Assembly (NCBI GenBank): GCA_018865545.1
Contig: GCA_018865545.1_3633.1
Source: a phage
Length of the DNA: 64,000 nt
Reading direction: 5' to 3' (one strand)
Shown: piece by piece, positions 5,095 to 63,014 of the stretch
How the letters are laid out: each line of letters begins with the position of its first letter
Numbering within the stretch: the stretch's first letter is position 1
Notes under the pieces: generated by a model
What the model was told of the DNA's origin: nothing
Databases searched by the model: none
The model's input: the letters and a program-made list of their open reading frames with translations, nothing else
Position numbers and translations under genes: made by a program

Positions 5095-5825
5095 TGATAG
5101 CCCCCTTACAAAGTAATTTGTAAGGTGCACCCATTGAATTGCTGGGAAGTCTGACCGAGTTATGTCGAAGATAATCAGCAGGTAAGCGAATGCTTCCCTC
5201 TTACAAAAGGAGGGAGAATATGAGTACATTTTGTTGTATAATCTGCGGTGAACAATGTGTTAAAACTGGTAAAAATCAAAAAGTATGTCTCTCTGAAGGT
5301 TGTAGAAGAGAATATTCAAAGATAAAAACCAGAGAATATAGACGCAGAAAGGCCGAAAGAGAAAATAGGCTTGACAGAGTTGGCATAGGAAAAGGTGGTG
5401 GGCAGCCTCGTGGGAAATTGTCCAAATTTTATAAAAATGGCATATCGATGTTTCGTAAGTTATCCCCTGTCATAAAGGAACAGAGAAGATACTGTAATAG
5501 ATGTAATAAAGATCTTCTTTATGCAGGTAAGGATGAGTGGTGCGTTCATCATATTGACCATGATAGGACGAATAACGAAATAAGTAATTTTGAATTACTT
5601 TGTAAAAAATGCCATCAAATAGAACATAAATGTTGGGAAGCATTCGAAACTTCAACGACTAGCCGAAAGGCGTAGGGCCAAGCGGTGAGGGAAACCTCCA
5701 GTCTTTCAGACTGCCGAAGCAGTGGGCATCCTGAAAAGGATGAAGATATAGTCTGATCTGCATAGAAATATGTAGCAGTTCCTAAGAGGACGGGCATGGT
5801 GTAGCGAGCCATGTTGAACAATATG
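5095..5825 (+). mobile_element. Group I intron interrupting DNA polymerase motif B, carrying an HNH endonuclease ORF
   Basis: Exon 1 ends in U (ggT), intron ends in G (5825); P-like gaattgctgggaag (5136-5149), Q-like aatcagcagg (5173-5182), R-like tcagactgcc (5706-5715), S-like aagatatagtctg (5743-5755); ORF lies between Q and R as in canonical ORF-containing group I introns; splicing would give ...GKGVTYG-IMYGAQAPKI..., matching pol A motif B. Confidence 0.6.
5190..5675 (+). CDS. HNH homing endonuclease (intron-encoded)
   Basis: 161 aa; CVHHIDHDRTNNEISNFELLCKKCHQIEH (HNH motif with Cys pairs); located inside intron between Q and R elements. Confidence 0.8.
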   Translation: MLPSYKRRENMSTFCCIICGEQCVKTGKNQKVCLSEGCRREYSKIKTREYRRRKAERENRLDRVGIGKGGGQPRGKLSKFYKNGISMFRKLSPVIKEQRRYCNRCNKDLLYAGKDEWCVHHIDHDRTNNEISNFELLCKKCHQIEHKCWEAFETSTTSRKA

Positions 5826-6458
5826 ATCATGTATGGAGCACAAGCTCCTAAGATAGCCGCAATGCTGGGTATCCCCCTTAATAGAGCACAGGCTGTAATA
5901 GACGCATTCTGGGATAGTAACTTCGGGTTGAAAATGCGTAGAGAGTGGTTAGAAAAATTCTGGGAGGCAAATGGGAGACGCTATATTCCAGGCATGGACG
6001 GGCGTAAAATTTGGACTCGTTCTAAACATTCTCTGCTGAATGCTTACCAACAAAACGGTGGTGCTTCATTGTTTGACCTCATGGGAGTCCTGTTCCATTG
6101 GGAATTGGTGAAACGGGGATGGTACGACCAAGGTGTCAGGAGGGTTATCTACTACCACGATGAGATACAGGTACAAGTACCGGAAAGATTTAAATCAATA
6201 ACGGAGCATTCTAACTTAGAGGCTGCACAAAGCTATGTAGACATGATGCTTGAAAAAGGCCATCGTTTCGACGGGCATTATGTGAAAGCAGGTAAAGTTA
6301 TTGTTGAACCTGATGTGTATGGGAAATACAGGATACTGCATTGCCCAGTAGGAGAGCTTGCAACAAAATGTGTAGAAAAAGCATCTAAGATAATGGGACT
6401 TCCCGTTTTAATTACAGGAGAATATCTTTGTGGATACACATGGGCAGATTCCCACTGA
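5826..6458 (+). CDS. DNA polymerase, family A, exon 2 (C-terminal polymerase part)
   Basis: In-frame continuation IMYGAQAPKIAAMLGI (second half of motif B), VIYYHDEIQVQV (motif C HDE); upstream in-frame stop at 5802 shows it is not an independent long ORF. Confidence 0.75.
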   Translation: MMYGAQAPKIAAMLGIPLNRAQAVIDAFWDSNFGLKMRREWLEKFWEANGRRYIPGMDGRKIWTRSKHSLLNAYQQNGGASLFDLMGVLFHWELVKRGWYDQGVRRVIYYHDEIQVQVPERFKSITEHSNLEAAQSYVDMMLEKGHRFDGHYVKAGKVIVEPDVYGKYRILHCPVGELATKCVEKASKIMGLPVLITGEYLCGYTWADSH

Positions 6459-10678: not shown

Positions 10679-10997
10679 TTACCAAAAATTACGTAAGCTA
10701 GCGGAGATAGCAAGAGATGGTGGTACTTATCAAGAAATAACTGACTACCGTACTATGGCCACACCTCAGCTTGTGCTGGCATTAATTGAAGAAATTGAAG
10801 ATCAAGGCAAACGTATTGCAGATCTGGAGGCACGGATAGTAGATCTTCCTCAACGGTTGCAACCTGGTGCTGATGGTTATGATGATTGGTATATGCACAG
10901 CGCAGATGATGGTGAATATTTCAAAGCCGATGAGGTTATCGCGGCAATCTACGCCGCTGGCATTCGCCTCAAGGAGGCAACCAGTGAGCGGAATTAA
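10668..10997 (+). CDS. Hypothetical protein, paralog A of a tandem pair
   Basis: 109 aa; IDYQKLRKLAEIARDGG...ATPQLVLALIEEIEDQGK shared with downstream ORF. Confidence 0.5.
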   Translation: MKIDYQKLRKLAEIARDGGTYQEITDYRTMATPQLVLALIEEIEDQGKRIADLEARIVDLPQRLQPGADGYDDWYMHSADDGEYFKADEVIAAIYAAGIRLKEATSERN

Positions 10998-49572: not shown

Positions 49573-49922
49573 CGTTTTTGTTCAGATAAGATCGCTACTC
49601 TTATCCCGCACCACTACGTGCTGCTGCATGTCACCATGCAGATCAGACTATATCTTGTGTGTTATTACACACCCCCCCTGTTTCGGCGGTTGATAATCAA
49701 CCGGAGGTTTCCCTCACCGCTTGGCCCTAACGCCCGTAAGCGATAGTCGTTGAACGTTCATCCCGTAGGGATGCTTCGCTGCGGATTGTCTAAACATTCA
49801 CACTGTTACTATACTCAACGTCATTACCGTTGACCATAAATATGTTACCATACCTACTTAGTGGTGATATGTATAAAGAGTTACCCGTCAATTAAAGGGG
49901 TTTATAGAGAGCACACTGTTCT
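49573..49922 (-). mobile_element. ORF-less group I intron in terminase gene
   Basis: Minus-strand P AAUUGACGGGUAAC (revcomp of 49880-49893), Q AAUCCGCAGCGAAG (49774-49787), R GUUCAACGACUAUCG (49741-49756), S AAGAUAUAGUCUGAUCUG (49636-49650); preceding exon ends in U, intron ends in G. Confidence 0.5.
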
Positions 49923-49955
49923 ACCCTCATCGAAACCTATAAAGGTATATTGCAA
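49923..49955 (-). CDS. terL: Terminase large subunit mini-exon (Walker B region), inferred
   Basis: Minus-strand frame LQYTFIGFDEG, hydrophobic run plus DE = Walker B-like, in frame with exon starting 49572 to give ...FIGFDEG-TQFTWSQIDYL...; bounded by intron-like sequence on both sides. Confidence 0.4.
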
Positions 49956-51666: not shown

Positions 51667-52064
51667 TTAGACCCCAAACTGTCGTTATAGATATCAACAA
51701 ACTGGTTATCGAGGCAAACCTGTTTTCCTGCTTGTGTTTTGCTATAACTTTTAACCTTTTTATCAAGGTCTTCTTTCAGTTGGTTATTAATTTCTCTCTC
51801 TTTCACCAACATGGTTGACAACTCATCGATCTTATCCTGCTGTTGTTTTTTAAAAGCGTTATTACGATCCAGAACTTGCTGGTTAACCCTCTCCCATTTA
51901 AGATCCGTGTCGCTGACACCTGCGTTGTAGGACGATGTTAACTGGTCATTATACCAATGTTTTATCCCCAAGATACCACAGACGAGAACCACACAACACA
52001 AAACAACACCTATCTGTTTTATGTTCTTAGAAAAGAAAGTTAACAGCGTTTTAAACCATATCAT
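51663..52064 (-). CDS. i-spanin (Rz-like, N-terminal TM + periplasmic coiled coil)
   Basis: 133 aa; hydrophobic IGVVLCCVVLVCGILGI then charged coiled-coil region; paired with downstream lipoprotein. Confidence 0.5.
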   Translation of the reverse strand: MIWFKTLLTFFSKNIKQIGVVLCCVVLVCGILGIKHWYNDQLTSSYNAGVSDTDLKWERVNQQVLDRNNAFKKQQQDKIDELSTMLVKEREINNQLKEDLDKKVKSYSKTQAGKQVCLDNQFVDIYNDSLGSK

Positions 52065-53479
52065 GATATATCCCCATCACACTCAATAATGTTTTCAATT
52101 TTCAGTGTTGTTTTTCTGTTTTCAGAAATACACAAATCATTAAAATAACCTATATCGTATTGGATCTTTGACGTATCGCTTACAGAAACCTCTAACAGAA
52201 CTGCACCGGGCTTATACATTGTAAACCCATAATCATCTGTCTCCCCGTTCTCACACAGAATTTTGTACTCTCCTCTTGCCTCCGTTTCATCAACATAAAG
52301 TCTGAGAGTTGGAAAATTATTTGCTATATCTTCTTTGTGAAGCCCAATATGATGTGTATCTTTTGTTGGCATCATGAGATAGAAAACTTCAGCAGGACAA
52401 ACTCCATATAGTTTTGTAAAGTATTTCCTGCCTGTTGCTTTTCTTAATCTTTGGAAAATACTGAACATATTAACTTTAGATACATCATTAAACGGCAACG
52501 GTTGCACAGGGGTAACATTTTTGTCTATCTGCTGGCAACCAGATTCTAATCTGTCCAAGCACTCAACCAAAGAATCAAGGGAAAACTGTTTCGTATCATC
52601 AAAGATATCAGACAGTTTCATTCCGTACATTCCACTAAGATGTGACTTTGCCGATTCCCAACTTTCTATCTGAAGACTAGCAATGGTCATAGCTAGTTTC
52701 ATTGTCTCTTTTTTCGAAATTGTATATCCACGAGATTTGTATTTTTCAGATCTCAAAAGTGACATAATCGGGTATTCAGTCTTATGATTTACAACTAAGA
52801 CCCTTTGAGCAATATGTTTTAAGAAGTTGCTATCAAATTCCCACACACCATCCTTGAAGTTAAAAGCACCCATGTTGATTGTAAAATCAATTTTACTAAA
52901 GATGTCTTCTGTTGTTTTGAATACATCCACAGCAACACACTGTAATACAGGGTCTTTCCCAAAGTACAGCATCACACTCTTATCGGTTACACCAACTCTG
53001 GTAAGGTTTGGAAGATCTTCATCTTCAAAATGAAGATTTTTACATCTTGACAAAGGATCTGTGAAACCTAAATGAGAACCCTGCCCATTATCAAGGTTAT
53101 AAAAATACCTAAAAGTTCTTTTTTGATTTCCCCATCCGTTTGTCTGTGCGGCTAAATCATACTTTCCACCTAAGAGATTTTTATCCATCATGTACGCAAT
53201 GAATATCTCAAGGCTTTCCCAAGATGGGAAATACAAATCAAGATCGTTGACTTTACTATTAGAGAACAAAGAGGTTATTGCCCCGCCAGCTATCTTAACA
53301 TCCAGCTTCGACAATAAATCATAAACACCTTTTGGTATAAAAGAGCACAAAATGTCGTACTCTCTTTGAAAATCTTCTTTTTTGAAAACATGCAACATCT
53401 TAGCTATCCTTGAGTACAAAACAAGATGCGTAAAGACTAGCACATAAAGAAAAACCCCGCAAGAGGCGGGGTTAGGCAT
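52061..53479 (-). CDS. Predicted nucleotidyltransferase-fold protein (pol-beta superfamily-like), function unknown
   Basis: 472 aa; GGAITSLFSNSKVNDLDLYF fits the G[GS]-x(9-13)-DxD signature; likely real start at internal Met (MLHVF...); lies between spanins and tRNA cluster. Confidence 0.4.
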   Translation of the reverse strand: MPNPASCGVFLYVLVFTHLVLYSRIAKMLHVFKKEDFQREYDILCSFIPKGVYDLLSKLDVKIAGGAITSLFSNSKVNDLDLYFPSWESLEIFIAYMMDKNLLGGKYDLAAQTNGWGNQKRTFRYFYNLDNGQGSHLGFTDPLSRCKNLHFEDEDLPNLTRVGVTDKSVMLYFGKDPVLQCVAVDVFKTTEDIFSKIDFTINMGAFNFKDGVWEFDSNFLKHIAQRVLVVNHKTEYPIMSLLRSEKYKSRGYTISKKETMKLAMTIASLQIESWESAKSHLSGMYGMKLSDIFDDTKQFSLDSLVECLDRLESGCQQIDKNVTPVQPLPFNDVSKVNMFSIFQRLRKATGRKYFTKLYGVCPAEVFYLMMPTKDTHHIGLHKEDIANNFPTLRLYVDETEARGEYKILCENGETDDYGFTMYKPGAVLLEVSVSDTSKIQYDIGYFNDLCISENRKTTLKIENIIECDGDIS

Positions 53480-53609
53480 AGGAGAGGAGATTGATTGGAT
53501 TATTATTATTATAGTTATTAGAGAAAAGTGGCGAAGGAACCTTTACATGTCGAGAGTGTCTTACCGTTTACTCAGCCACGACCTTCCTTAGTGTCCACTT
53601 TAATTCTAG

Positions 53610-53682
53610 TTGCGAGTATTGGAATCGAACCAATCTGGACTGGCTTATGAGACCAGCGAAGTCACCAGACTTCAAACTCGCA
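53610..53682 (-). tRNA. tRNA-Met (anticodon CAU; could also be Ile-lysidine type)
   Basis: Manual fold: acceptor TGCGAGT/ACTCGCA, D stem GAAG/CTTC, anticodon stem CTGGT/GCCAG, loop CTCATAA, T arm ATTGG-TTCGATT-CCAAT. Confidence 0.75.
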
Positions 53683-53686
53683 ATGT

Positions 53687-53917
53687 TCATTTATTACCAA
53701 GAGAAATCCTTCTAGGTGGATGACCAAAATGGATCTCATAAGTGCCATCAAGTCTTCCTTTCTTTGTCCGACAATATTTATCTACTTTCTTGTAGTTCTT
53801 CACTTCTTGAGTAGTATACCTAGAATCGGCAATAAGTAGAATAAGAGGCCACCCAGCACAAAATTTTCTAACTGTCTCTATTTTTTGGATATATGCACTC
53901 TTCAATTTTCTTCGCAT
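53687..53917 (-). CDS. Hypothetical small protein within tRNA cluster
   Basis: 76 aa ORF between tRNA genes. Confidence 0.3.
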   Translation of the reverse strand: MRRKLKSAYIQKIETVRKFCAGWPLILLIADSRYTTQEVKNYKKVDKYCRTKKGRLDGTYEIHFGHPPRRISLGNK

Positions 53918-53935
53918 GATCTATTTCCTGTTTGG

Positions 53936-54008
53936 TGTGACGGACAGGGTTCGAACCTGTGACCACCTAGTCTTCAGCAAGGCACTCTACCAACTGAGTT
54001 ACCGTCAC
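53936..54008 (-). tRNA. tRNA-Phe (GAA)
   Basis: Acceptor GTGACGG/CCGTCAC, D arm ACTC-AGTTGGTA-GAGT, anticodon loop CTGAAGA, T arm ACAGG-TTCGAAC-CCTGT; CCA encoded. Confidence 0.8.
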
Positions 54009-54016
54009 ATGATTGG

Positions 54017-54090
54017 TAGGCGATGAGGGACTCGAACCCCCAAAATTCAGGTTCTAAGCCTGACATGTATACCAATTCCATCAATCGCCC
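54017..54090 (-). tRNA. tRNA with anticodon UAG (Leu by anticodon) but short variable arm, atypical
   Basis: Acceptor GGGCGAT/ATCGCCT (G1-U72), anticodon stem TCAGG/CCTGA, loop CTTAGAA, 5 nt variable region, T arm GGGGG-TTCGAGT-CCCTC; CCA encoded. Confidence 0.5.
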
Positions 54091-54104
54091 ATTTATATCA
54101 ACAG

Positions 54105-54296
54105 TTATGGTTTTCCACGATACACAGAAATAGTTTTCCCATTGGCATTGATAACATAAGCTGTCTGATCCTCAGACAAAAACACTTTTTGGTCAATACC
54201 TGAAATAGCTATAGACTTTTGATGAGCACAATACCCAACAATTTTCCCACAAAAAATTTGTTCATCATTTGGAGATACGACTTTAACTGTTAACAT
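54105..54296 (-). CDS. Hypothetical small protein within tRNA cluster
   Basis: Start moved to internal ATG 54296 because the annotated N-terminus overlaps tRNA-Pro. Confidence 0.3.
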   Translation of the reverse strand: MLTVKVVSPNDEQIFCGKIVGYCAHQKSIAISGIDQKVFLSEDQTAYVINANGKTISVYRGKP

Positions 54297-54341
54297 GGTA
54301 TCCTCTGTACATTTCTGCTTTGATATGTATATGTTTGTTGG

Positions 54342-54416
54342 TCTGTCCGGTTGGATTTGAACCAACGACCTGATCATCCCAAGTGACCCGCGCTACCCAA
54401 GCTGCGCTACGGACAG
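54342..54416 (-). tRNA. tRNA-Pro (UGG)
   Basis: Acceptor CTGTCCG/CGGACAG, D arm GCGC-AGCTTGGGTA-GCGC, anticodon stem GGTCA/TGATC, loop CTTGGGA, T arm GTTGG-TTCAAAT-CCAAC; CCA encoded. Confidence 0.8.
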
Positions 54417-54503
54417 AGAAATGTAGATTTTAATTGTCCCAGAATCTACTAACTGGTATCGCTGGCTAGGTGATATCTGTGACTTGATTAAGTCAAGAAT
54501 TGG

Positions 54504-54591
54504 CGGTTCCTGAAGGATTCGAACCTTCGGTGGGGAGATTCCTCCCAACGGCTTAACAGGCCGTCACCATCGACCACTCGGTCAAAGAACC
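54504..54591 (-). tRNA. Type II (long variable arm) tRNA with anticodon GUU (Asn by anticodon), atypical
   Basis: Acceptor GGTTCTT/AGGAACC, 3 bp D stem with GAGTGGTCGA loop, anticodon stem ACGGC/GCCGT, loop CTGTTAA, variable hairpin GGGAG-GAAT-CTCCC, T arm GAAGG-TTCGAAT-CCTTC, discriminator G, CCA encoded. Confidence 0.5.
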
Positions 54592-54603
54592 AGAATATTT
54601 TGG

Positions 54604-54677
54604 TGGATCTGGTTAGATTCGAACTAACAATCCCTCGATTAAAAGTCGAGTGCCTTAAACCATTTGGCTACAGATCC
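54604..54677 (-). tRNA. tRNA-Lys (UUU)
   Basis: Acceptor GGATCTG/CAGATCC, anticodon stem CTCGA/TCGAG, loop CTTTTAA, T arm GTTAG-TTCGAAT-CTAAC; CCA encoded. Confidence 0.75.
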
Positions 54678-54907
54678 TTTAAATTATCTTTAAAATAGCT
54701 AATTACTCGCACATAATTAGCTATACGCAACAGCCCTCTAGGGAGGGCACACTAATGATAGATTACGATTACATGACCATCATGAGTGTTTGACTTACGC
54801 CAGTAAAGAGCGGACTGCTCTGGGGTATCGGTAAAGTGGTTACCGCCACTTGCCGAAGATTTACTCTGCTAAAGTAAGAATAACAAGCTACATTAAAGAT
54901 AACTTGG

Positions 54908-54993
54908 AGGAGGCTGACAGAATCGAACTGTCACCATATCTCTACAGCGGGACTGGGTTCAAACCAGCTTGTGCACCATGCACCCCAGCCTCC
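54908..54993 (-). tRNA. tRNA-Ser (UGA), type II, atypical D arm
   Basis: Acceptor GGAGGCT/AGCCTCC, anticodon stem GCTGG/CCAGT, loop TTTGAAC, long variable region, T arm GACAG-TTCGATT-CTGTC; D region forms a tight GTGCA/TGCAC hairpin; CCA encoded. Confidence 0.55.
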
Positions 54994-55074
54994 AAAAATT
55001 GCCTCTGCCGAGAATATACACCCAACAAAGACGGCGCTCAGGTCCGAAGAAATCTGAGCCTTGACATACAGTGG

Positions 55075-55165
55075 AGGAAGATGCCAGACTTGAACTGGCA
55101 CACCCATTTCTGGGTTACTATCTCCTTAGCAGGGAGACCCCTTACCAAATTAGGGTTAATCTTCC
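55075..55165 (-). tRNA. tRNA-Ser (GCU), type II
   Basis: Acceptor GGAAGAT/ATCTTCC, anticodon stem TCTCC/GGAGA, loop CTGCTAA, long variable arm, T arm GCCAG-TTCAAGT-CTGGC; CCA encoded. Confidence 0.65.
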
Positions 55166-55189
55166 AATACCTTAGTAATTAAAAACTGG

Positions 55190-55276
55190 CGGAGAAGGAG
55201 AGAATCGAACTCTCAAGCCGTTTTACCAGTCAGCACATTTCCAATGTGTTTTCGTCGCCAATCGATTTGCTTCTCC
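55190..55276 (-). tRNA. tRNA-Ser (GGA)-like, type II, tentative
   Basis: Acceptor GGAGAAG/CTTCTCC, T arm GAGAG-TTCGATT-CTCTC, candidate anticodon loop TTGGAAA with imperfect stem; CCA encoded; D arm not well resolved. Confidence 0.45.
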
Positions 55277-55288
55277 GTTTTAACTTGG

Positions 55289-55361
55289 CAGGGGATGGTT
55301 GATTCGAACAACCGATCACGGGGTCAAAGCCCGTTGCATTAGGCCACTATGCTAATCCCCT
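55289..55361 (-). tRNA. tRNA-Gln (UUG)
   Basis: Acceptor AGGGGAT/ATCCCCT, D arm GCAT-AGTGGCCTA-ATGC, anticodon stem ACGGG/CCCGT, loop CTTTGAC, T arm GGTTG-TTCGAAT-CAACC; CCA encoded. Confidence 0.8.
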
Positions 55362-55365
55362 TTTG

Positions 55366-55444
55366 CACGAGAGTGAGGAATCGAACCTCTTAGTCACTGG
55401 TTTTGGAGGCCAGCCTTCACCCAGTGAAGTTACGCTACTCTCAT
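55366..55444 (-). ncRNA. tRNA-like sequence, unassigned
   Basis: Acceptor-like pairing ATGAGAG/CTCTCGT and T arm GAGG-TTCGATT-CCTC, but central region forms a long CACTGG/CCAGTG helix instead of canonical D and anticodon arms. Confidence 0.3.
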
Positions 55445-55450
55445 TAAAAA

Positions 55451-56008
55451 CTATTTTCGGAAAGGACTTATGAAAAATGCCAACATCACTCTCTCTCTTG
55501 AAAAAGCTCTGTCTTCAGGAACCACACTCTTCAGTTTCCAACCGACATAAATTCGCCAGTAAAATTGTTTTCCAAACAATCTAAAAGACGGGACAAACGC
55601 GAATACACCCCACGCATTGTCATTCCACATCAACAAATAGCCTTGTTGATTATCCTCCACATCAGAGCTTACATGGATGTTTCCTTTCCACTTTGTCACA
55701 GATGTGATTTCACGTCCAAGTGCGTGATAGGAGAAATTGTAGGCTTTATTTCTCCACAACCAAGCAACTCGTTGCAGATAAACACCAAAACTCCCTATCT
55801 TACGAACTTCTGCCCATCTCTCTATGTGTCCTTTATCACCATCTATAGGATTATCATATGTTTCCATCCACCTGAAAATATAAGGTAGATGCCCTGTCTT
55901 CTCATTATAGAACGGAACAACAAAAGGAGCCAGAATAACACAGAGAACCGACATAACTGGGTCAAGAGGTGCTAACAGAATCCACGATAAATATTTCAAG
56001 TATCTCAT
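55451..56008 (-). CDS. Hypothetical membrane protein
   Basis: 185 aa; N-terminal hydrophobic helices (LSWILLAPLDPVMSVLCVILAPFVVPF); Trp-rich. Confidence 0.45.
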   Translation of the reverse strand: MRYLKYLSWILLAPLDPVMSVLCVILAPFVVPFYNEKTGHLPYIFRWMETYDNPIDGDKGHIERWAEVRKIGSFGVYLQRVAWLWRNKAYNFSYHALGREITSVTKWKGNIHVSSDVEDNQQGYLLMWNDNAWGVFAFVPSFRLFGKQFYWRIYVGWKLKSVVPEDRAFSRERVMLAFFISPFRK

Positions 56009-56235
56009 GCAGGATCAAGCCTAGATATAATGTACTGGTTTAAATCTGAATATGGGAAGATACTTTCAAAGATAACCTGTTTAAATCTGAAACCGCACAA
56101 ACCGAAAAGTACCTTCTGACACTCCCCAAAAGAACAATCTTTACCAACTTTTATCACAACCGTATCGGCAACCTGCACACTTTCTATCTCTTTAGGTTCA
56201 TGATGCCGTACTATGATTACTTTAGAAACCATCAT
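56005..56235 (-). CDS. Hypothetical protein
   Basis: 76 aa ORF overlapping downstream gene start by 4 nt. Confidence 0.4.
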   Translation of the reverse strand: MMVSKVIIVRHHEPKEIESVQVADTVVIKVGKDCSFGECQKVLFGLCGFRFKQVIFESIFPYSDLNQYIISRLDPA

Positions 56236-56363
56236 ACTCGTCCGTATTAAAGCCTTCTACTATAGATAGTAGATGTCTAGGGTTGGACCGCAAACTCAAC
56301 CCCATGGAATTTGTTACGGTCTTCAGTTGACCCAAGCGGATTTCATTGACATCTTTTAACTGG

Positions 56364-56435
56364 AGCATCCAGAGGGTATCGAACCCTCGACTACAGCTTG
56401 GAAGGCTGTAGTTTTCCCAATTAAACTATGGATGC
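56364..56435 (-). tRNA. tRNA-Gly (UCC)
   Basis: Acceptor GCATCCA/TGGATGC, D stem GTTT/AAAC, anticodon stem ACAGC/GCTGT, loop CTTCCAA, T arm GAGGG-TTCGATA-CCCTC, discriminator U as expected for Gly; CCA encoded. Confidence 0.8.
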
Positions 56436-56443
56436 ATATTTGG

Positions 56444-56516
56444 TGGGAGTGGTAGGCTCTGCCCCTACGTCCTCTCGATTATCGGTCGAGCGATCTACTA
56501 ACTGATCTACACTCCC
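56444..56516 (-). tRNA. tRNA-Ile (GAU) with unusual T loop
   Basis: Acceptor GGGAGTG/CACTCCC, D arm GATC-AGTTAGTA-GATC, anticodon stem CTCGA/TCGAG, loop CCGATAA, T stem GTAGG/CCTAC but loop GGCAGAG lacks TTC; CCA encoded. Confidence 0.6.
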
Positions 56517-56587
56517 AAACTGTACTGACCCAACAACCACGATTGGAGGGTATCGTCACACATCAAAGCCAGTACAGATTCAGTTGG

Positions 56588-56674
56588 TGTGCCGTGATAG
56601 AGTCGAACTACCCGAGTCCCTTTCGAGACAGGAGATTTACAGTCTCCCCCGCTACCCCTACGGTCTAACGACAC
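56588..56674 (-). tRNA. tRNA-Tyr (GUA), type II
   Basis: Acceptor GTGTCGT/ACGGCAC, anticodon stem GGAGA/TCTCC, loop CTGTAAA, long variable arm, T arm GGTAG-TTCGACT-CTATC; CCA encoded. Confidence 0.65.
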
Positions 56675-56675
56675 A

Positions 56676-57023
56676 TTAACCTTGTTTGAATTGAACAATA
56701 TCCGTCGAGAATGGTTTAGCTGCCTTAATAGGAGCTTTTTCTGAGTTATCTTTTTCGAGTAACTCTTCGTTTTCCTCATCAAAGTAATCAGAAAGCATCT
56801 GCTCACCTTTCTCAATAACATAACGAGCGATATTTTCTCTGATATTGTCTTTTGTATTCACATTCTTCATCAAATCCCTAAGAACCTGATGAGCTTCAGG
56901 AATCATTGCAATCAGATTCGTTTTCAAATCTAGGATATTTTTCTCTAACTGAATTGCATTAGATTCCTCTTTCAGAGGACGACCTTTCCCTCTTCTACGT
57001 TTTGTAAGCTGCTTAGTAGCCAT
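56676..57023 (-). CDS. Hypothetical protein
   Basis: Start moved to internal ATG 57023 (MATKQLTKRRRGKGRP...) because the annotated 5' part overlaps tRNA-Cys. Confidence 0.45.
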   Translation of the reverse strand: MATKQLTKRRRGKGRPLKEESNAIQLEKNILDLKTNLIAMIPEAHQVLRDLMKNVNTKDNIRENIARYVIEKGEQMLSDYFDEENEELLEKDNSEKAPIKAAKPFSTDIVQFKQG

Positions 57024-57111
57024 TTTAAAACCCCACTTAATGATATTATCAAATAAAAACATATCTGTCAAGTGGTATTTTAACATATTTACCAAGAAAT
57101 TGAAAGTTTGG

Positions 57112-57185
57112 AGCACGGTGTCGGACTTGAACCGACATATATCTGTTTTGCAGACAGATCCGTAACCAAATTCCGGCAACCGTGC
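57112..57185 (-). tRNA. tRNA-Cys (GCA)
   Basis: Acceptor GCACGGT/ACCGTGC, anticodon stem TCTGT/ACAGA, loop CTGCAAA, T arm GTCGG-TTCAAGT-CCGAC, discriminator U as expected for Cys; CCA encoded. Confidence 0.8.
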
Positions 57186-57264
57186 AATAAGTACCCCGAG
57201 TAGAGAACCTATAGAGTGGGTCTTACGAGCCGCGCTGACGATTCTCAAGTTGGGGTTAATCTGG

Positions 57265-57338
57265 TCGAGGAGACAGGATTCGAACCTGTGACCTACGGCT
57301 TAGAAGGCCGCTGCTCTATCCAACTGAGCTACACCCCG
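57265..57338 (-). tRNA. tRNA-Arg (UCU)
   Basis: D arm GCTC-AGTTGGATA-GAGC, anticodon stem GCGGC/GCCGT, loop CTTCTAA, T arm ACAGG-TTCGAAT-CCTGT; acceptor has one U-U mismatch; CCA encoded. Confidence 0.7.
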
Positions 57339-57538
57339 AGAATAAGAATGCTTTATAGTGTATGGTTACTCAACCTCACCCCAACTTCCACAGTTGGTGC
57401 TCTACGAGCATGACTACGTTTGAAATCAACGTTGCGCACCGATAGCTTTCTCACGCATTGTATGCCTCATTCCCAACAAATGCTGATCAGGCATTTATAT
57501 CGAATAATATAAGCTAATACACTATAAAACAAACTTGT

Positions 57539-57635
57539 GGCTGGGTGATGGAATCGAACCACCTATGTATTCAACGGCTAGCCCGTCTATTTTCAGGATT
57601 ATAAATCCTCGCCCTTGCCAAAGGGCTTACCCAGC
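57539..57635 (-). ncRNA. tRNA-like sequence with oversized variable region, anticodon uncertain (possibly UAU)
   Basis: Acceptor GCTGGGT/ACCCAGC, perfect D arm GCCC-TTTGGCAA-GGGC, T arm GGTGG-TTCGATT-CCATC, but about 30 nt between anticodon arm and T arm. Confidence 0.35.
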
Positions 57636-57640
57636 ATTGG

Positions 57641-57712
57641 TGCTCGCAGCAGGTTTCGAACCTGCAACCCCCTGCTTACAAGGCAGGTGCTCTACCGTTG
57701 AGCTATACGAGC
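57641..57712 (-). tRNA. tRNA-Thr (UGU)
   Basis: Acceptor GCTCGTA/TGCGAGC, D arm GCTC-AACGGTA-GAGC, anticodon stem CCTGC/GCAGG, loop CTTGTAA, T arm GCAGG-TTCGAAA-CCTGC; CCA encoded. Confidence 0.8.
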
Positions 57713-58077
57713 AATAAGACATTGCTTCCGATTAACAGCCTTGAGGCTTTACAGACCATATCTTGTGAGCCATAACCTGTGCCAAGGATTTCAGATGATA
57801 AACGAAATTTTATCTTTCAAGAATTAACTTTCAAGTTTCATCTTTTACATTTGACCATTGACCTTTATTGTATGAACTTTTACTTAGTGGAAACAACAAG
57901 GCATCTTCGTGTGCCTCGCTGCATCTATGTCCTGTATTATCCTCATACATATACGATACATGGTGGGGAATATTTAACCTCCAATCCCCAGGAGGCAAGA
58001 TGATGTAAACTTCGTTAATCAAAAGCAATGTTTTAAATTTCAAAACAAAGGAACGATAATGATATTATCAGAGCCTT

Positions 58078-58725
58078 TTAGAGAGAGTGCTCAATCTCAA
58101 TTTCTGTCTTAGCGTTTGACTCAGACAACGCAAAATCAACGTTAGACAAGAAATCTTCAATCTCTTCTTCAAGAGAACGAATCTTAGAAGCCAGTTCAAG
58201 AGGATCCACAACCGATGGTGTGTTCATCATTCGAATGGGAGCTTCCACAGTCTTAATCTGCTCTGCATCTGGCGCTTTATCACGTTGGATATATGGCGCT
58301 CTGGCATTTTCAAGTTTATCTTCCAGAGATTTTTCTTCTTTTGCCAGAAGAAGCTGTGCAGAAGCACGCTGTGCACAAAGTTTGTTTAACAACTCTTGTT
58401 TAAAGCAAATCGTCCGTTTGCGTTCGATTGCCTCAGCAACTGTCATAGACACCTTACCAATTTTGACAATTGTCTCAGCATTAGACTTGACAATTTTTGC
58501 CTTCAGTTCATCGCGAACTGCCAAGAGGTCTTGCAGACTTTGATAGTCGTTGATCGCAGATTTCTTAAAATCATCAACAGAGCCGATATAACCAGGAATC
58601 TTACAATTATTCTCAGTTCCTTTTGCAATCTTAATACATTCAAGGTTATAAATACGCTTATTGATCTTATCTTCAATCTTAGAGATAGAAGCAAGTGCAC
58701 GAGTTACGGAAATCTTAGTAGACAT
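58078..58725 (-). CDS. Hypothetical protein
   Basis: 215 aa ORF, predicted coiled-coil segments. Confidence 0.45.
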   Translation of the reverse strand: MSTKISVTRALASISKIEDKINKRIYNLECIKIAKGTENNCKIPGYIGSVDDFKKSAINDYQSLQDLLAVRDELKAKIVKSNAETIVKIGKVSMTVAEAIERKRTICFKQELLNKLCAQRASAQLLLAKEEKSLEDKLENARAPYIQRDKAPDAEQIKTVEAPIRMMNTPSVVDPLELASKIRSLEEEIEDFLSNVDFALSESNAKTEIEIEHSL

Positions 58726-59066
58726 TCAATCTCTCCTATGTAAATTAGCTTTGATAAAGTAACTATACAGAAAAACAAAAACTATGTCAAGAAAAATTTT
58801 AATCTTTTACAGCATCTTTTATAGAATCACAAAGATCTTGGACAAGATCAGATGTCGGTGACAAAATCATCTCGTCTGCTGCTGCTATAGCATCTGATGC
58901 TAAATCAACAAACGGAGTTGTTACCGCAGCAGTCACTTCAACAGCCGTTGTTGTTACATCGCTTGCAATCTTAAGCAAAGATCCTATCATAATCTCAACC
59001 CTCCTGAATGTCCGTGATTCCCTTTGTTTAATGACGCTGGCTCACGGTGGCACTCTCGTCAGTAAA

Positions 59067-59390
59067 TTATTTTTTAGTTTTCTTAACGTTTTCTACAGGA
59101 GTGCTTGTTTTCTGTTTCACTTCTCGTTCACGCTTTGTTTTCCCAGTACGGATACGATAGGAAGCAGAAATCACTTCACCACCAATGACACGAGACACAG
59201 ATTCATAATACATTTCAGTATTACCGTCTTCATCTTTGCGTTTTTTCAGAACTGCTACAGTTTGCGTTTTGCCACCAAGACGCACATCGTGCGGTGCAGA
59301 ATGTGTCTGCGTGGATTTTGATTCAAACTGAAAAGGTTGCTTGATCGCCTCGATAGCTGATACCTTTTTAGCAGACTGTTTCTTAGCCAT
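59067..59390 (-). CDS. Hypothetical basic protein (possible nucleic-acid binding)
   Basis: 107 aa, Lys/Arg-rich N- and C-termini. Confidence 0.4.
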   Translation of the reverse strand: MAKKQSAKKVSAIEAIKQPFQFESKSTQTHSAPHDVRLGGKTQTVAVLKKRKDEDGNTEMYYESVSRVIGGEVISASYRIRTGKTKREREVKQKTSTPVENVKKTKK

Positions 59391-59445
59391 TAAGTTTTCT
59401 CCTCCGAAAACAATAAACCTAGTTTATTTCGTGTGCCACATTTGG

Positions 59446-59518
59446 TGGCCCCTGCTGGACTTGAACCAGCGACCAAGCGATTATGAGTCACCTGCTCTAA
59501 CCACTGAGCTAAGGGGCC
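59446..59518 (-). tRNA. tRNA-Met (CAU), second copy (initiator, elongator or Ile-lysidine type not resolved)
   Basis: Acceptor GGCCCCT/AGGGGCC, D arm GCTC-AGTGGTTA-GAGC, anticodon loop CTCATAA, T arm GCTGG-TTCAAGT-CCAGC; CCA encoded. Confidence 0.75.
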
Positions 59519-60429: not shown

Positions 60430-62145
60430 TTAAAGCTGTGACAAAGCTCTTTGGCGAATTTCTTCAAGATCCTCATCCACAAGCAGCTTACCATTAACAA
60501 AAACTGTTCTAAGCTCGTTATCAGGGTCAGATACCTGATTAATACCAAGATTATCTACCAGCTTCAACTCACCATCATCACCACGAATAACTTTAACAAA
60601 ACCTTTCGCAGATTTCTTCCCAAGATCAGTCTTAGGCTCTTTTACAACCATTACTTGTCTGCCATCAATCACAGCACCAGTAGCTTTTACAGCCATCCCA
60701 AGAGAATCACGAGTTGTATATTGCGTTGTATAAGATCCTACACCAAACACAATGTTGCTGGAAGCAAAGCCTCGTTCTTCAAGGCGCTCAAAGATCTCTT
60801 TAGCACGAGAGATTGTGATAGAGTCTCCGTAGATTAAACCAACATGGCTATCAAGAACTTTGTAACCCAAAGAGTTTACACTACCACCAAAGATTTCCCA
60901 CAAGCATTGTACAGCACCCTTAACCTCCTCTTTGGTCAGATAATTTGTAAACTCATCACCTGTCAAAGATTTCCAATCTACGAGGTTGCCTTCCGAATCT
61001 CGCATCCATGAAGTGTCTCTGGACATCTCGTACAGAGTAACATATTTGCCATTCTTAAACAGCACAGCATCCATGTCACAGCACTGACCAGTTGCCCATT
61101 CTTCCTGGGAGCACACACGATAGCCAGCAATAATGTGCTCTGGGATCCCACTGTCCGGTCGAAAGACCAGCTTGCCATCACGAGACATAATCTCATCTTT
61201 CAGGATTTTGGCTGCCTGTGTAATGATTGCCCAAAAATCATAGCTGTCTGCGACGTATGAAGCATAGCCTGACGGAAAAATCTCTGTTGCATAACGCTTT
61301 AAGAACTCAACTTCAGCACGAAAACGTGCTTCAGCAAGCGACATATCAGGATTTTCCTGCTGGATACGCTCAACAATAAAACCAATGTTCGTTGTCGCTA
61401 CGCTATGCTCAGATGCGGGAATAGACCCAGCAACAAAGCGACCTTTCATGTTGTAATAGCGATTTGCGTAAACAATCGCTGGAATTGTATCTGTGCCCAT
61501 TGAGCTAATCAGTTGCCCAAATTCGCTCTGTGCTGCGTCATGTGTTCCAGCTTCACCACGGTATGCAAAACAATGGTTCTGGAAAGGAACGTGATCGTTG
61601 TTATCACATGTTTTCTTTGCCCACAGTTCTGATAGTTTACGGTATTGCCAGAAAGTCGTTGCCGTGGTAATCGTCTTCCAAGTCTCCGAAGAGATCACGC
61701 TCTCAAGGAAGTTTGGCAGCCAGTAAAAATCAGGGTGCGTATTCTGAATCGTGAACATAGGAACCTGAACAGGAACAAGAGTTCCTTCAGGCAAGGCTCT
61801 AATTTCAATTGGGAGATAGCCAAGATCATGCAATCTCTCAAAACCCCAAGTTTCAACAGCACCCTTCCCAATGCTCAAATCACAAATCTCTTTGTAATCC
61901 TGAATCGCCTTTTCTTTCGGTAAAGCAAAGAAATTATTATTAAACATGTCAATCAGGAACCACTTGATAAATCCCTGAAGACCAGCAAACATCACACGAT
62001 GGTCATCATCTGCAAAGTGTACAAAGTGTTTCGCATTGCGTGGTGTCATGTTGTCTTGAACAAACTGTGAACGTTTGTCGTACATCGAGATGTGACTTGG
62101 TTTATAAAAATCTGCAAACAGCAATGGACTTTCTTTGTGAAGCAT
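60430..62145 (-). CDS. nadV: Nicotinamide phosphoribosyltransferase (NAMPT/NadV-like)
   Basis: 571 aa, size and many conserved stretches typical of NAMPT family (e.g. GSIPASEHSV, YGDSITISRA, GVGSYTTQY); adjacent to PRPP synthetase. Confidence 0.8.
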   Translation of the reverse strand: MLHKESPLLFADFYKPSHISMYDKRSQFVQDNMTPRNAKHFVHFADDDHRVMFAGLQGFIKWFLIDMFNNNFFALPKEKAIQDYKEICDLSIGKGAVETWGFERLHDLGYLPIEIRALPEGTLVPVQVPMFTIQNTHPDFYWLPNFLESVISSETWKTITTATTFWQYRKLSELWAKKTCDNNDHVPFQNHCFAYRGEAGTHDAAQSEFGQLISSMGTDTIPAIVYANRYYNMKGRFVAGSIPASEHSVATTNIGFIVERIQQENPDMSLAEARFRAEVEFLKRYATEIFPSGYASYVADSYDFWAIITQAAKILKDEIMSRDGKLVFRPDSGIPEHIIAGYRVCSQEEWATGQCCDMDAVLFKNGKYVTLYEMSRDTSWMRDSEGNLVDWKSLTGDEFTNYLTKEEVKGAVQCLWEIFGGSVNSLGYKVLDSHVGLIYGDSITISRAKEIFERLEERGFASSNIVFGVGSYTTQYTTRDSLGMAVKATGAVIDGRQVMVVKEPKTDLGKKSAKGFVKVIRGDDGELKLVDNLGINQVSDPDNELRTVFVNGKLLVDEDLEEIRQRALSQL

Positions 62146-62210: not shown

Positions 62211-63014
62211 TTAAAAATTTTCTGTCCAGTCGTAATACGCATAAATTTCGTCAACACCACCGTCGAGAATAAATTCTTTCCCACGAGAGAAAATTCCATG
62301 CGTAACATACAAAATAACACGTTTTGCACCAGCAGCTTTCAAGGCTTGAGCTAAGTTTGTAAACGTAAACCCACCATCGCAGATATCATCGACAATCAGG
62401 CATGTCTTCCCATCGACATCACCAAACACTGTTGTACCTGTGATTGCCCCTGTCGAAACATCACGGACTTTACCAGCCTCCACCACACACAAATCCAAAG
62501 CATCAGCAACTTTCTGGGCCTTCTTGCGTGCTCCTGCATCTGGAGCAATCAGAACAAGTGATTTAAGCAGGTTAAAATCAAAATTCATTCCAAGAAACAA
62601 CTCCGCTTGAGAACGAATTTTCACGTTATCAATCAGTGCTGCGGATACGTCACTGTGCGGGTCATCGACAATGACTTTGTGGAAACCAAGTGAATTAATC
62701 ATTGTGGCAAAGACTTTCACCGATAGAGATTCTCCAGGGTTCATAACTCGGTCTTGTCGAGCATACGGAATGTACGGCAGGTGTAAAACCTTTTCCACAC
62801 CAACATCCAAATTGCCAAGACGATTAACTGCATCAACAAGCAGTGCCAAACACATCACATCCTGTGAGTTCTTGAGTCTAGCGAAGATATCAACAAAACC
62901 AATCGAACCATGCGGAACATGACGCATATCGATCTTAATCTGCTCCTCACCACCACTAAATGTGAAATGGTCAACTGGCACATGTAGCTTGTTCAAACTC
63001 AAACGAATATTCAT
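62211..63014 (-). CDS. prs: Ribose-phosphate pyrophosphokinase (PRPP synthetase)
   Basis: 267 aa; CLIVDDICDGGFTF (PRPP-binding DDI-DGG-T motif) and overall Prs-like layout. Confidence 0.8.
   Translation of the reverse strand: MNIRLSLNKLHVPVDHFTFSGGEEQIKIDMRHVPHGSIGFVDIFARLKNSQDVMCLALLVDAVNRLGNLDVGVEKVLHLPYIPYARQDRVMNPGESLSVKVFATMINSLGFHKVIVDDPHSDVSAALIDNVKIRSQAELFLGMNFDFNLLKSLVLIAPDAGARKKAQKVADALDLCVVEAGKVRDVSTGAITGTTVFGDVDGKTCLIVDDICDGGFTFTNLAQALKAAGAKRVILYVTHGIFSRGKEFILDGGVDEIYAYYDWTENF

Follow-up and report, generated by a model that had tools for sequence, protein, structure and literature searches.

Are the irregular members of a phage tRNA gene array functional oddities, decoys or pseudogenes? 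This question is raised by a 64,000-nucleotide (nt) stretch of phage DNA (assembly GCA_018865545.1, contig GCA_018865545.1_3633.1), referred to here as the window, in which tRNA and tRNA-like genes occupy positions 53607-59518 of the minus strand. A sequence-only reading of the window had listed all three possibilities for the unusual genes. We show herein that the genes and their folds exist, and that compensatory substitutions hold the non-canonical members to conserved designs. The best explanation overall, to which we give a probability of roughly 0.8, is a selected phage tRNA array with conserved odd designs that would supply codons, replace tRNAs lost to nucleases and be charged by the host. 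Of the three earlier possibilities, functional oddities gained support from homologues and compensatory stems, and pseudogenes lost it as a general reading.

The region is the tRNA gene array of an Escherichia coli phage of the Vequintavirinae (Avunavirus, Av-05-like), an ordinary member of the rV5/PVP-SE1 lineage. Over the whole region it is 96.6% identical to Escherichia phage Av-05 (Vequintavirinae, Avunavirus) and about 97% identical to four marmot-derived relatives, and synteny of the array extends to Seunavirus (PVP-SE1, GAP31, 4MG, SalP219), Henunavirus (Hena1) and Vequintavirus (rV5, JEP1). The arrays of PVP-SE1, GAP31, 4MG, rV5, Hena1 and Av-05 share with it the place between the NadV/Prs and the spanin/terminase genes, the gene order, the small open reading frames (ORFs) and homologues of every odd tRNA. 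The window has fewer tRNAs than Seunavirus, with none for Asp, His, Ala, Val or Glu. Published accounts of the Vequintavirinae give tRNA counts, such as nine for Av-05 (PMC4463512) and six for rV5 (PMC3606486), and codon usage only; the structural oddities are not discussed.

An element was taken as a tRNA if its score against the Rfam model RF00005 was at least the curated gathering threshold (29 bits), or if ARAGORN called it with a cloverleaf. In a scan of the window, ARAGORN called 15 tRNA genes, on the minus strand only (53933-59518), and the RF00005 gathering score was reached at 14 places in the tRNA stretch; the union is 17 of 19 elements. Two of the RF00005 matches were missed by ARAGORN, namely tRNA-Ile(GAU) at 56444-56516 (53.4 bits) and a 97-nt element at 57539-57635 (33.1 bits). 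E-values of the elements range from 1e-15 to 1e-3, so the tRNA assignments are far beyond chance. The other two elements, a CAU-like gene (53607-53682) and a Trp-like gene (55363-55444), fall below threshold and were scored in a permissive Rfam scan by the tRNA-Sec model only (40.7 bits at 53612-53681 and 34.4 bits at 55369-55440). Together these matches recover the 17 tRNA genes and two tRNA-like sequences that had been folded by eye, all on the minus strand, and the last two genes are the pair whose cores had been called non-canonical. The array holds about 16 decoding tRNAs and three tRNA-like RNAs, with small phage ORFs interspersed.

A tRNA-Sec identity was considered for the sub-threshold matches and rejected. 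By the criterion used for RF01852, a tRNA-Sec scores at least 47 bits and has a UCA anticodon, a 13-base-pair (bp) acceptor/T domain and a long variable arm. The three genes concerned, which include the class II tRNA-Tyr(GUA) at 56585-56674 (called by ARAGORN, with an unusual D arm and no Rfam match other than the tRNA-Sec model), scored 40.7, 34.4 and 28.5 bits, have the anticodons CAU, CCA and GUA, and possess acceptor/T domains of 12 bp. The only feature that they have in common with tRNA-Sec is a long D stem with a small loop.

A 3' CCA is encoded in 16 of the 19 elements, in keeping with the earlier statement that most genes carry it. The exceptions are the 97-nt element (C-ACA), the Trp-like gene (G-CAA) and the CAU-like gene (A-CUA); the Av-05 counterparts of the last two end in G-CCA and A-CCA, respectively. 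Such lesions bear on the rival view that decay into pseudogenes, or faulty tRNA prediction, accounts for the atypical genes. The CCA of the Trp-like and CAU-like genes is mutated to CAA and CUA in the window, tRNA-Ser(GGA) has an A.C mismatch (C.C in Av-05) and a variable discriminator, ARAGORN and Rfam disagree on five genes, a deletion in the relative TH18 has fused the CAU-like gene, and a tRNA-like remnant lies at about 57380-57470. Nevertheless, almost every copy has unbroken stems, compensatory changes are seen from genus to genus, and pairing falls to 33-50% when partners are slid in the three covariation alignments made (for the long-arm tRNA(GUU), the CAU-like gene and the 97-nt element). 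Moreover, the same odd loops, such as the T and D loops of tRNA-Ile, occur in separate genera. As to the lost ends, the cca enzyme of E. coli can repair the loss of an encoded CCA, and a candidate phage CCA enzyme is encoded next door. The odd genes recur in other genera, where base changes compensate one another; they are therefore products of selection, not of decay, and the pseudogene view as a whole seems very unlikely. It is possible for three window copies with small defects, that is, the two genes with a mutated CCA and tRNA-Ser(GGA) with its A.C pair.

The gene at 54501-54591 is the long-arm tRNA(GUU). ARAGORN and Rfam (57 bits) give it the same cloverleaf, which has the anticodon loop CUGUUAA, a 19-nt variable region containing a 5-bp stem, G73 and CCA, and the body has in addition G1-C72, G2-C71, G9, C11-G24 and a Ser-type D arm. 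It therefore has class II structure, defined by a helix-forming variable region longer than 10 nt, but its anticodon, GUU (Asn), lies outside the textbook class II set of Leu, Ser, Sec and bacterial Tyr (PMC2377443). The earlier description of a long-variable-arm tRNA with a GUU anticodon was thus borne out, and no canonical structure was found at 54504-54591. Homologues annotated as tRNA-Asn, 84-91 nt in length, are found in GAP31, 4MG, EC152, VIK251 and PVP-SE1, and further ones in the 348-kb Salmonella phages 7t3 and SE_PL and in phiKZ-like Pseudomonas phages. In an alignment of 14 sequences, 96% of cells are paired and 21 of the 25 pairs have changed on both sides; the covariation score is 0.70, compared with at most 0.15 when partners are slid. 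All four aligned pairs of the variable stem covary, with 89% of cells paired in the same 14 sequences.

The distribution of this tRNA was examined with a family scan for the pattern CTGTTAA, then 20-32 nt, then GGTTCRAATCC, the figures from which are precisions among the matches listed and not totals. Among viral matches listed, 110 of 120 loci are long tRNA(GUU) genes (98 unique). Among cellular matches listed, only nine of 120 are: five archaeal genes bearing introns, two in tRNA arrays of metagenome-assembled genomes (MAGs) and two with Ser-like bodies, which makes four non-archaeal cases in 120. The two Ser-like bodies with GUU (loci L196, a Prevotellaceae MAG, and L202, an Alphaproteobacteria MAG) have a GGAGG... 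acceptor stem, G73 and a long arm, and lie outside obvious tRNA arrays. In an unbiased sample of viral loci anchored on tRNA-Asp, long forms make up seven of 44 tRNA-Asn genes (16%). In the same loci (L274-L392), forms of at least 80 nt, with variable arms, introns and D-loop insertions counted alike, are also frequent for Ile(UAU) (6/17) and Cys(GCA) (4/21) and are rare in other class I isoacceptors. Judged from these sequences, the long-arm tRNA(GUU) is a widespread, essentially viral class that is held by selection and is nearly absent from cellular genomes. Neither it nor the class I tRNA-Leu described below has a counterpart by blastn in 5,426 complete E. coli genomes, even at E = 10, so they are not recent host captures. 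A full-text literature search, of incomplete coverage, found no description of a phage long-arm tRNA-Asn.

Which amino acid would such a tRNA carry? The identity set of E. coli asparaginyl-tRNA synthetase (AsnRS) consists of the GUU anticodon (G34-U35-U36) and G73, and that of seryl-tRNA synthetase (SerRS) consists of the long arm, G1-C72, G2-C71 and G73, the anticodon being ignored (PMC9976931). Through its CUGUUAA loop and G73, tRNA(GUU) has the former in full. Since both sets are present, sequence alone allows Asn, Ser or both. A rival explanation follows, in which the tRNA takes Ser, alone or together with Asn, and inserts Ser at AAY codons as a mistranslating or dual-identity tRNA. Its SerRS set and Ser-type D arm speak for this, as does the 19-nt/5-bp variable arm, which falls within the size range of phage Ser tRNAs and not of Tyr or Leu (14 nt). 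In addition, tRNA-Ser(GCU) of Pseudomonas phage PPSC2 has a near-identical D arm and an anticodon one base apart, and U73 is found in two of the cluster's three Ser tRNAs, with G73 in tRNA(GUU).

Nonetheless, the long-arm tRNA(GUU) most likely decodes AAY as Asn. Asn is favoured because Asn codons are 5.7% of phage codons, where insertion of Ser would harm phage proteins, and because of the first base pair in the family. U at position 1 was found in 57 of the 110 members and G73 in at least 90 of the 110 among the matches listed, and half of the family has the tRNA-Asn-specific pair U1-A72. In E. coli, asnT likewise shows U1-A72 and G73. Pseudomonas relies on the transamidation route for Asn-tRNA. 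The phiKZ-like member of the family also has U1-A72, which fits that route, this pair being the element used by the amidotransferase and, with G73, the signature of bacterial tRNA-Asn (PMC9976931). The variable arm of most members is likewise less Ser-like than that of the window gene: variable regions have a median of 16 nt and stems of 3-4 bp, compared with 14 nt for phage Tyr and Leu tRNAs and 18 nt with a 5-bp stem for phage Ser tRNAs. In a hairpin-length shuffle test on the variable regions of 97 members, the excess was modest (3.58 versus 2.92 bp); the clear signal came from covariation in the aligned sub-family of 14 sequences. On balance, charging with Ser is an unlikely alternative to decoding as Asn.

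Nor do comparisons with tRNA classes in the same loci indicate Ser as the parent. Best identity of the family to co-resident tRNAs fell on Tyr in 36 cases, class I Asn in 36, Ser(GCU) in 18 and Ser(UGA) in seven, and the window gene is equally identical (56/91 each) to E. coli serU and asnT. The D arm of the PPSC2 tRNA is the one resemblance suggesting that the family may have arisen from Ser(GCU) by C35U.

Class II bodies with class I amino-acid anticodons are known from the nev-tRNAs of nematodes (PMC3333845) and from tRNA-Ser variants with non-Ser anticodons. Those tRNAs are charged according to their bodies, with Leu or Ser, and mistranslation is caused or risked. In contrast, GUU and G73 of the window gene make up the Asn identity set, which makes faithful decoding plausible. 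Textbooks assign the long variable arm to other amino acids, a rule that is contradicted by a class II tRNA with an Asn anticodon. With both identity sets in one molecule, this tRNA offers a clean test case for AsnRS versus SerRS.

The reverse departure is seen at 54014-54090, where a tRNA with the anticodon UAG has a short variable arm, as the earlier reading had noticed; again, no canonical structure was found at 54017-54090. This tRNA-Leu(UAG), called by ARAGORN and scored by Rfam at 60.7 bits, combines a variable loop of only 5 nt (AUUUU, the last base being U48) with a Leu-type D arm (GGAAUUGGUAUAC), A73 and CCA. Recognition by E. coli leucyl-tRNA synthetase (LeuRS) depends on A73, U8-A14, A15-U48, the placement of G18G19, and A20a, the long arm being dispensable (PMC9976931, PMC2377443). 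The core of the phage tRNA reads U8 G9 ... A14 A15 U16 U17 G18 G19 U20 A20a; every E. coli LeuRS determinant is kept, and what is missing is the long arm of a class II body. GAP31, 4MG, PVP-SE1 and SalP219 all have this gene, and its anticodon stem has undergone compensatory changes among them. In the tRNA-Asp-anchored viral sample, short forms are common and account for seven of 24 Leu(UAG), four of 24 Leu(UAA) and six of 13 Leu(CAA) tRNAs. Class I tRNA-Leu of animal mitochondria and armless engineered E. coli tRNA-Leu are also recognized through A73 and the D/T-loop core, but the window tRNA is natural, belongs to a bacterial virus and keeps a bacterial Leu-type D arm. No description of a natural class I tRNA-Leu in a bacterial virus was found in the literature.

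In tRNA-Ile(GAU) (56441-56516), it is the elbow that differs. The gene has four perfect stems, A73 and CCA, together with the T loop GGCAGAG, which lacks TTC as first noticed, and the D loop AGTTAGTA (also written AGUUAGUA). The design is shared by PVP-SE1, SalP219 and locus L265, in which the T loop is AGCAAAG, the D loop is identical and the T stem shows a compensatory change; GAP31, 4MG and Hena1 have normal loops. Positions 54/58 are G/G in the window and A/A in PVP-SE1, SalP219 and L265. The pattern looks like a re-designed D/T-loop elbow, not decay.

All three Ser tRNAs have non-standard D arms, as had been noted, and two of them receive no score from Rfam. That for UGA (54905-54993, called by ARAGORN) has a minimum free energy (MFE) fold with an 8-bp acceptor stem, a 5-bp D stem with a UGG triloop, a 7-bp variable stem, a 4-bp T stem and U73. 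Its pair 8:65 is G-C in the window and PVP-SE1 and A-U in GAP31, SalP219 and the rV5 group, whereas the alternative 7/5 fold would pair 49:65 as G.U or A.C. An 8-bp acceptor stem with a 4-bp T stem defines the (8/4) type, and within the array both Ser(UGA) and the Trp-like gene belong to it. In Ser(GCU) (55072-55165; ARAGORN, Rfam 40.8 bits), a 3-nt connector lies ahead of the D stem and the discriminator is U73. The third, the divergent Ser(GGA) at 55187-55276, is the weakest gene of the cluster. It was called by ARAGORN only, with no Rfam match even in the permissive scan, and its D stem is 3 bp long and oddly flanked, its variable stem is weak and its anticodon stem has an A.C mismatch where Av-05 has C.C; the discriminator is G73 in the window and A73 in Av-05 and TH18. 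Its odd D region and a compensatory anticodon-stem change recur in PVP-SE1 and locus L255.

In the Trp-like gene at 55363-55444 (anticodon CCA), an 8-bp acceptor stem is joined through a 7-nt connector to a 6-bp hairpin capped by a UGG loop. The anticodon loop is CUCCAAA, the variable loop is short, the T stem is 4 bp long, and G73 is followed by CAA. Homologues are present in PVP-SE1, where the gene is annotated as tRNA-Trp, and at locus L075, with compensatory changes in the hairpin and the acceptor stem; in Av-05, PVP-SE1 and L075 the 8-bp acceptor stem is followed by G73-CCA. With G73, A1-U72 and CCA kept, such a tRNA would be chargeable. Previous work reported (8/4) tRNA-Ser and tRNA-His in alpha-proteobacterial phages (Mukai et al. 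2017, PMC5389517), and the (8/4) and allo-tRNAs described there share with the window genes the 8-bp acceptor stem, the 4-bp T stem and long D stems with small loops. In the window, by contrast, the 8/4 body is found in a gene with a Trp anticodon as well, one that has a short variable loop and a 7-nt connector; Trp does not appear in that paper. As a side observation, Hena1 has a long-variable-arm tRNA-Trp(CCA) of 87 nt (10830-10916).

The MFE fold of the CAU-like gene (53607-53682) is a perfect cloverleaf. Its D stem has 6 bp and a UGGU loop, its anticodon stem likewise has 6 bp, its first pair is U1-A72, and A73 is followed by CUA. A tRNA(CAU) with a 6-bp D stem is found in about 320 phage records, mostly T5-like, and the window gene is homologous to tRNAfMet of T5, which is annotated as an initiator. 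Across nine sequences, 96.6% of cells are paired and 12 pairs have changed on both sides, with a covariation score of 0.514 compared with at most 0.114. Bacterial initiator tRNA-fMet is marked by a 1:72 mismatch and by three consecutive G-C pairs at the base of the anticodon stem. The window gene has neither feature, with U1-A72 and the stem CUGGU/GCCAG ending in a U.G pair. Position 1:72 is U1-A72 in the Vequintavirinae copies and U1.U72 in T5-like and KVP40-like ones. At 1205-1283 of TH18, a deletion has left a fusion gene whose 5' part comes from another tRNA(CAU) and whose 3' part comes from the CAU-like gene, with loss of the ORF at 53687-53917 (window 53606-53930). Enlarged D loops are seen in 82-nt tRNA(CAU) genes of PVP-SE1 and GAP31, and in both phages a tRNA-Lys(UUU) of 86-87 nt has a hairpin inserted in the D loop (PVP-SE1 5848-5933, GAP31 5746-5832).

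The element at 57539-57635 is of another kind. Its 97-nt RNA folds at the MFE as a cloverleaf with a 7-bp acceptor stem, a 6-bp D stem with a 4-nt loop, a long variable hairpin and a canonical T arm, and lacks CCA; the place of the anticodon arm is taken by a 6-bp stem with a UAU triloop, or by 4 bp with a 7-nt loop. It begins 2 nt after tRNA-Thr(UGU), a neighbourhood kept in all genera. Its 13 homologues, all in Vequintavirinae, give 99.3% of cells paired and nine pairs changed on both sides. In relatives the loop is UUU (rV5), the 6-nt CAUCCA (Seunavirus) or the UCA-like CAUCAAA (Hena1, annotated tRNA-sup(tca)), and two single-stranded motifs, GAAAAUA and GAAUACAUAGG, are invariant. The element is a selected RNA of tRNA shape that probably does not decode, and its closest precedent is the set of tRNA-like stable RNAs of T5.

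It is the main candidate for a broader alternative, in which some members of the array are non-decoding tRNA-shaped RNAs, such as nuclease decoys or competitive inhibitors, processing signals or regulators. Covariation in the 97-nt RNA extends over the acceptor, D, T and variable helices, with an "anticodon" loop that varies, and the RNA always adjoins tRNA-Thr(UGU), a target of both AriB and P2 OLD. The T5 tRNA region contains annotated tRNA-like stable RNAs whose function is unknown, and the PARIS paper raises competitive inhibition of AriB by over-expressed viral tRNAs. On the other hand, the Seunavirus and Henunavirus copies end in U73-CCA, as an aminoacylatable tRNA would, and in each of the other odd genes an intact anticodon loop of 7 nt presents a sense anticodon for codons that the phage over-uses. 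The alternative is less likely than not; for the 97-nt element, with a loop conserved in neither length nor sequence, a decoy role is possible. The stable RNAs of T5 have no similarity to the 97-nt element or to the structured spacer RNA described below.

For the decoding members, two uses can be set out. First, 52 long ORFs of the window were compared in codon usage with 22 ORFs from one E. coli locus, a comparison of phage and host that had been called for earlier. The phage is enriched in the codons that the cluster reads: AGA 22.8-fold, ACA 5.8-fold, AUA 4.5-fold, UCU 3.6-fold, CUA 2.9-fold, CAA 2.2-fold, UCA and GGA 2.0-fold each, and CCA 1.9-fold. The anticodon set matches the codons over-used by the phage relative to E. 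coli, which supports codon supply. Second, phage tRNAs have been reported to rescue infection from PARIS AriB, which targets Lys(UUU), Thr(UGU) and Asn(GUU), from P2 OLD, which targets Thr(UGU), and from retron-Eco7, which targets Tyr(GUA) (PMC12409363, PMC12445682). The cluster includes Lys(UUU), Thr(UGU), Asn(GUU) and Tyr(GUA), the isoacceptors hit by those nucleases, as do the known defence-escaping phage tRNAs (T5 Lys, Thr and Asn against AriB, Tyr against retron-Eco7, Thr against P2 OLD). Positions 36-41 read UAAGCA in the canonical tRNA-Thr(UGU) (57638-57712) and UAAUCG in the canonical tRNA-Lys(UUU) (54601-54677), both found by ARAGORN and Rfam. The window Thr and Asn tRNAs are substituted at position 39, having G39 where AriB requires U39. 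Known escapes consist of point changes in the anticodon stem or loop, or of a shortened stem. The odd designs of the window, such as the added variable arm, are changes of the whole body, and a comparison of long with short tRNA-Asn showed no link between the arm and the AriB motif. The T5 tRNA-Asn for which there are functional data against PARIS is a short form of 78 nt.

In the proposed mechanism, the array would be transcribed leftward from sigma-70-like promoters up to a strong intrinsic terminator, and the transcript would be processed by host tRNA-maturation enzymes. Host synthetases would then charge the products, Leu(UAG) through its LeuRS determinants and tRNA(GUU) through its AsnRS determinants. 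The charged tRNAs would top up rare codons and replace host tRNAs destroyed by PARIS AriB, P2 OLD and retron-Eco7. Bodies with a long variable arm, an 8/4 arrangement, 6-bp D stems or an altered elbow might be retained because they alter recognition by the nucleases yet stay usable in translation, and an adjacent protein with a CCA-adding fold may maintain or add the 3' ends.

Several observations weigh against this explanation. Three window elements have no CCA, and the anticodon stem of Ser(GGA) contains an A.C mismatch. With a loop of 6 or 3 nt, the copies of the 97-nt element in most relatives cannot decode. The tRNA(GUU) also has the full E. coli SerRS set and a Ser-sized arm. The AriB motif U39-C40 is kept in 47% of long and 44-46% of short phage tRNA-Asn genes, which is no difference. 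Finally, the fold match of the adjacent protein reaches a template modelling (TM) score of only about 0.3, and no sequence family of CCA-adding enzymes matched it.

A stronger proposal can be built on the same facts: the long-arm tRNA(GUU) would be a distinct virus-specific class that breaks the class II rule, its arm being adaptive because it shields the neighbouring 3' strand of the anticodon stem from host tRNases, or because it marks the tRNA as non-host while AsnRS still charges it, or because it confers dual Asn/Ser identity, and the whole locus would be a tRNA replacement-and-maintenance island directed against tRNA-targeting immunity. This proposal we regard as speculative and rather improbable in full. 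More generally, with class I Leu, 8/4 Ser and Trp, an elbow-altered Ile and a non-decoding RNA, phages explore tRNA architectures not used by cells, and these architectures bear on escape from tRNA-cleaving immune systems. They bear on annotation as well, since standard procedures miss or mislabel several genes of the array; nine tRNAs were published for Av-05, and none is annotated in its record.

The gene for the adjacent protein (52061-53398, minus strand) lies just past the terminator. It encodes 445 amino acids, of which G38, G39, D52, D54 and D171 (GG...DxD...D) are invariant in 34 homologues. The structural model is confident, with a predicted local distance difference test (pLDDT) score of 83.9, and the top 45 Foldseek matches in the PDB are all CCA-, CC- or A-adding enzymes (best E = 1.1e-6). 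The protein thus has a Pol-beta nucleotidyltransferase head with GG...DxD and a predicted fold like that of class II CCA-adding enzymes (tRNA nucleotidyltransferases), and there is no match in Pfam, NCBIfam or PDB sequences. The ORF keeps its position at the end of the tRNA cluster in Av-05, GAP31, 4MG, PVP-SE1 and SalP219. It is plausible, from the modelled fold and this synteny, that the protein makes or repairs tRNA 3' ends. Together with the lineage-wide nature of the odd designs, the viral family of long-arm GUU tRNAs and the tRNA-Ile2 assignment given next, this gene is an addition to what the sequence-only reading contained.

Transcription of the array would begin with the gene at 59443-59518, labelled Met by ARAGORN and also found by Rfam. 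It is canonical, ends in CCA, has the anticodon CAU and is identical at 75 of 76 positions (98.7%) to the E. coli tRNA-Ile downstream of mug (ileX type). It is a host-like tRNA-Ile2 (the lysidine type), not a tRNA-Met, and probably reads AUA. A sigma-70-like promoter, TTGACA-17-TAACAT, lies 22 nt upstream at 59568-59540, recognized by consensus match only, and further promoter-like sites on the same strand were found at 58790-58762, 57834-57807 and 57071-57043. The terminator that closes the cluster (53453-53473) has an 8-bp GC-rich stem and a U tract.

The remaining tRNA genes, each found by ARAGORN and Rfam, are the canonical tRNA-Arg(UCU) (57262-57338), tRNA-Cys(GCA) (57109-57185), tRNA-Gly(UCC) (56361-56435), tRNA-Gln(UUG) (55286-55361), tRNA-Pro(UGG) (54339-54416) and tRNA-Phe(GAA) (53933-54008). 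At the place of tRNA-Arg(UCU), which is canonical in the window and in TH18, Av-05 has a different tRNA(UCU) of about 86 nt with a long variable region and CCA; the difference is a cassette replacement between 97%-identical genomes. The possible tRNA remnant at about 57380-57470 (minus strand) contains GCTCGTAGAGCACCAACTGTGGAAGTTGG, which resembles the 5' half of the adjacent tRNA-Thr.

Eight small ORFs lie inside the cluster, all on the minus strand and every one in a phage family of unknown function. They encode 107 amino acids (59067-59390, phrog_6662), 63 (58799-58990, phrog_9123), 215 (58078-58725, phrog_1491, annotated "tail fiber protein" and T5.085-like, preceded by the promoter-like site at 58762-58790), 115 (56676-57023, phrog_3330, preceded by that at 57043-57071), 76 and 185 (together 55451-56235; phrog_14202 and DUF7338/phrog_2143), 63 (54105-54296, phrog_3909) and 76 (53687-53917, phrog_7065). 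The T5 tRNA region shares with the window the T5.085-like ORF, the homologous tRNA(CAU) with a 6-bp D stem (tRNAfM) and the presence of tRNA-shaped RNAs (RNA2, RNA3, RNAI and others). It differs by U1.U72 in its CAU gene, where the window has U1-A72, and by its tRNA-Asn of 78 nt, which is not long-armed.

Between tRNA-Ser(UGA) and tRNA-Lys(UUU), a 221-nt spacer (54680-54900, minus strand) encodes a structured RNA that is not a tRNA (MFE -75.3 kcal/mol, z = -7.3) and matches no Rfam family. Pairing of AUCUUUAAUGUAGCU with AGCUAUUUUAAAGAU brings its two ends together, and in the rV5-like phage JEP1 this closing stem recurs, with differences that compensate one another, around a shorter version. 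The core is conserved in rV5-like phages, with 94-96% identity.

Immediately upstream of the cluster, on the same strand, a NAPRTase-family (NadV-like) gene (60430-62145) and a ribose-phosphate pyrophosphokinase gene (62211-63014) form a nicotinamide adenine dinucleotide (NAD)-salvage pair beside the tRNA genes. At 49624-49950 (minus strand) Rfam calls a group I intron (RF00028, 66.3 bits), by its position probably in the gene for the terminase large subunit, a gene that is split in rV5.

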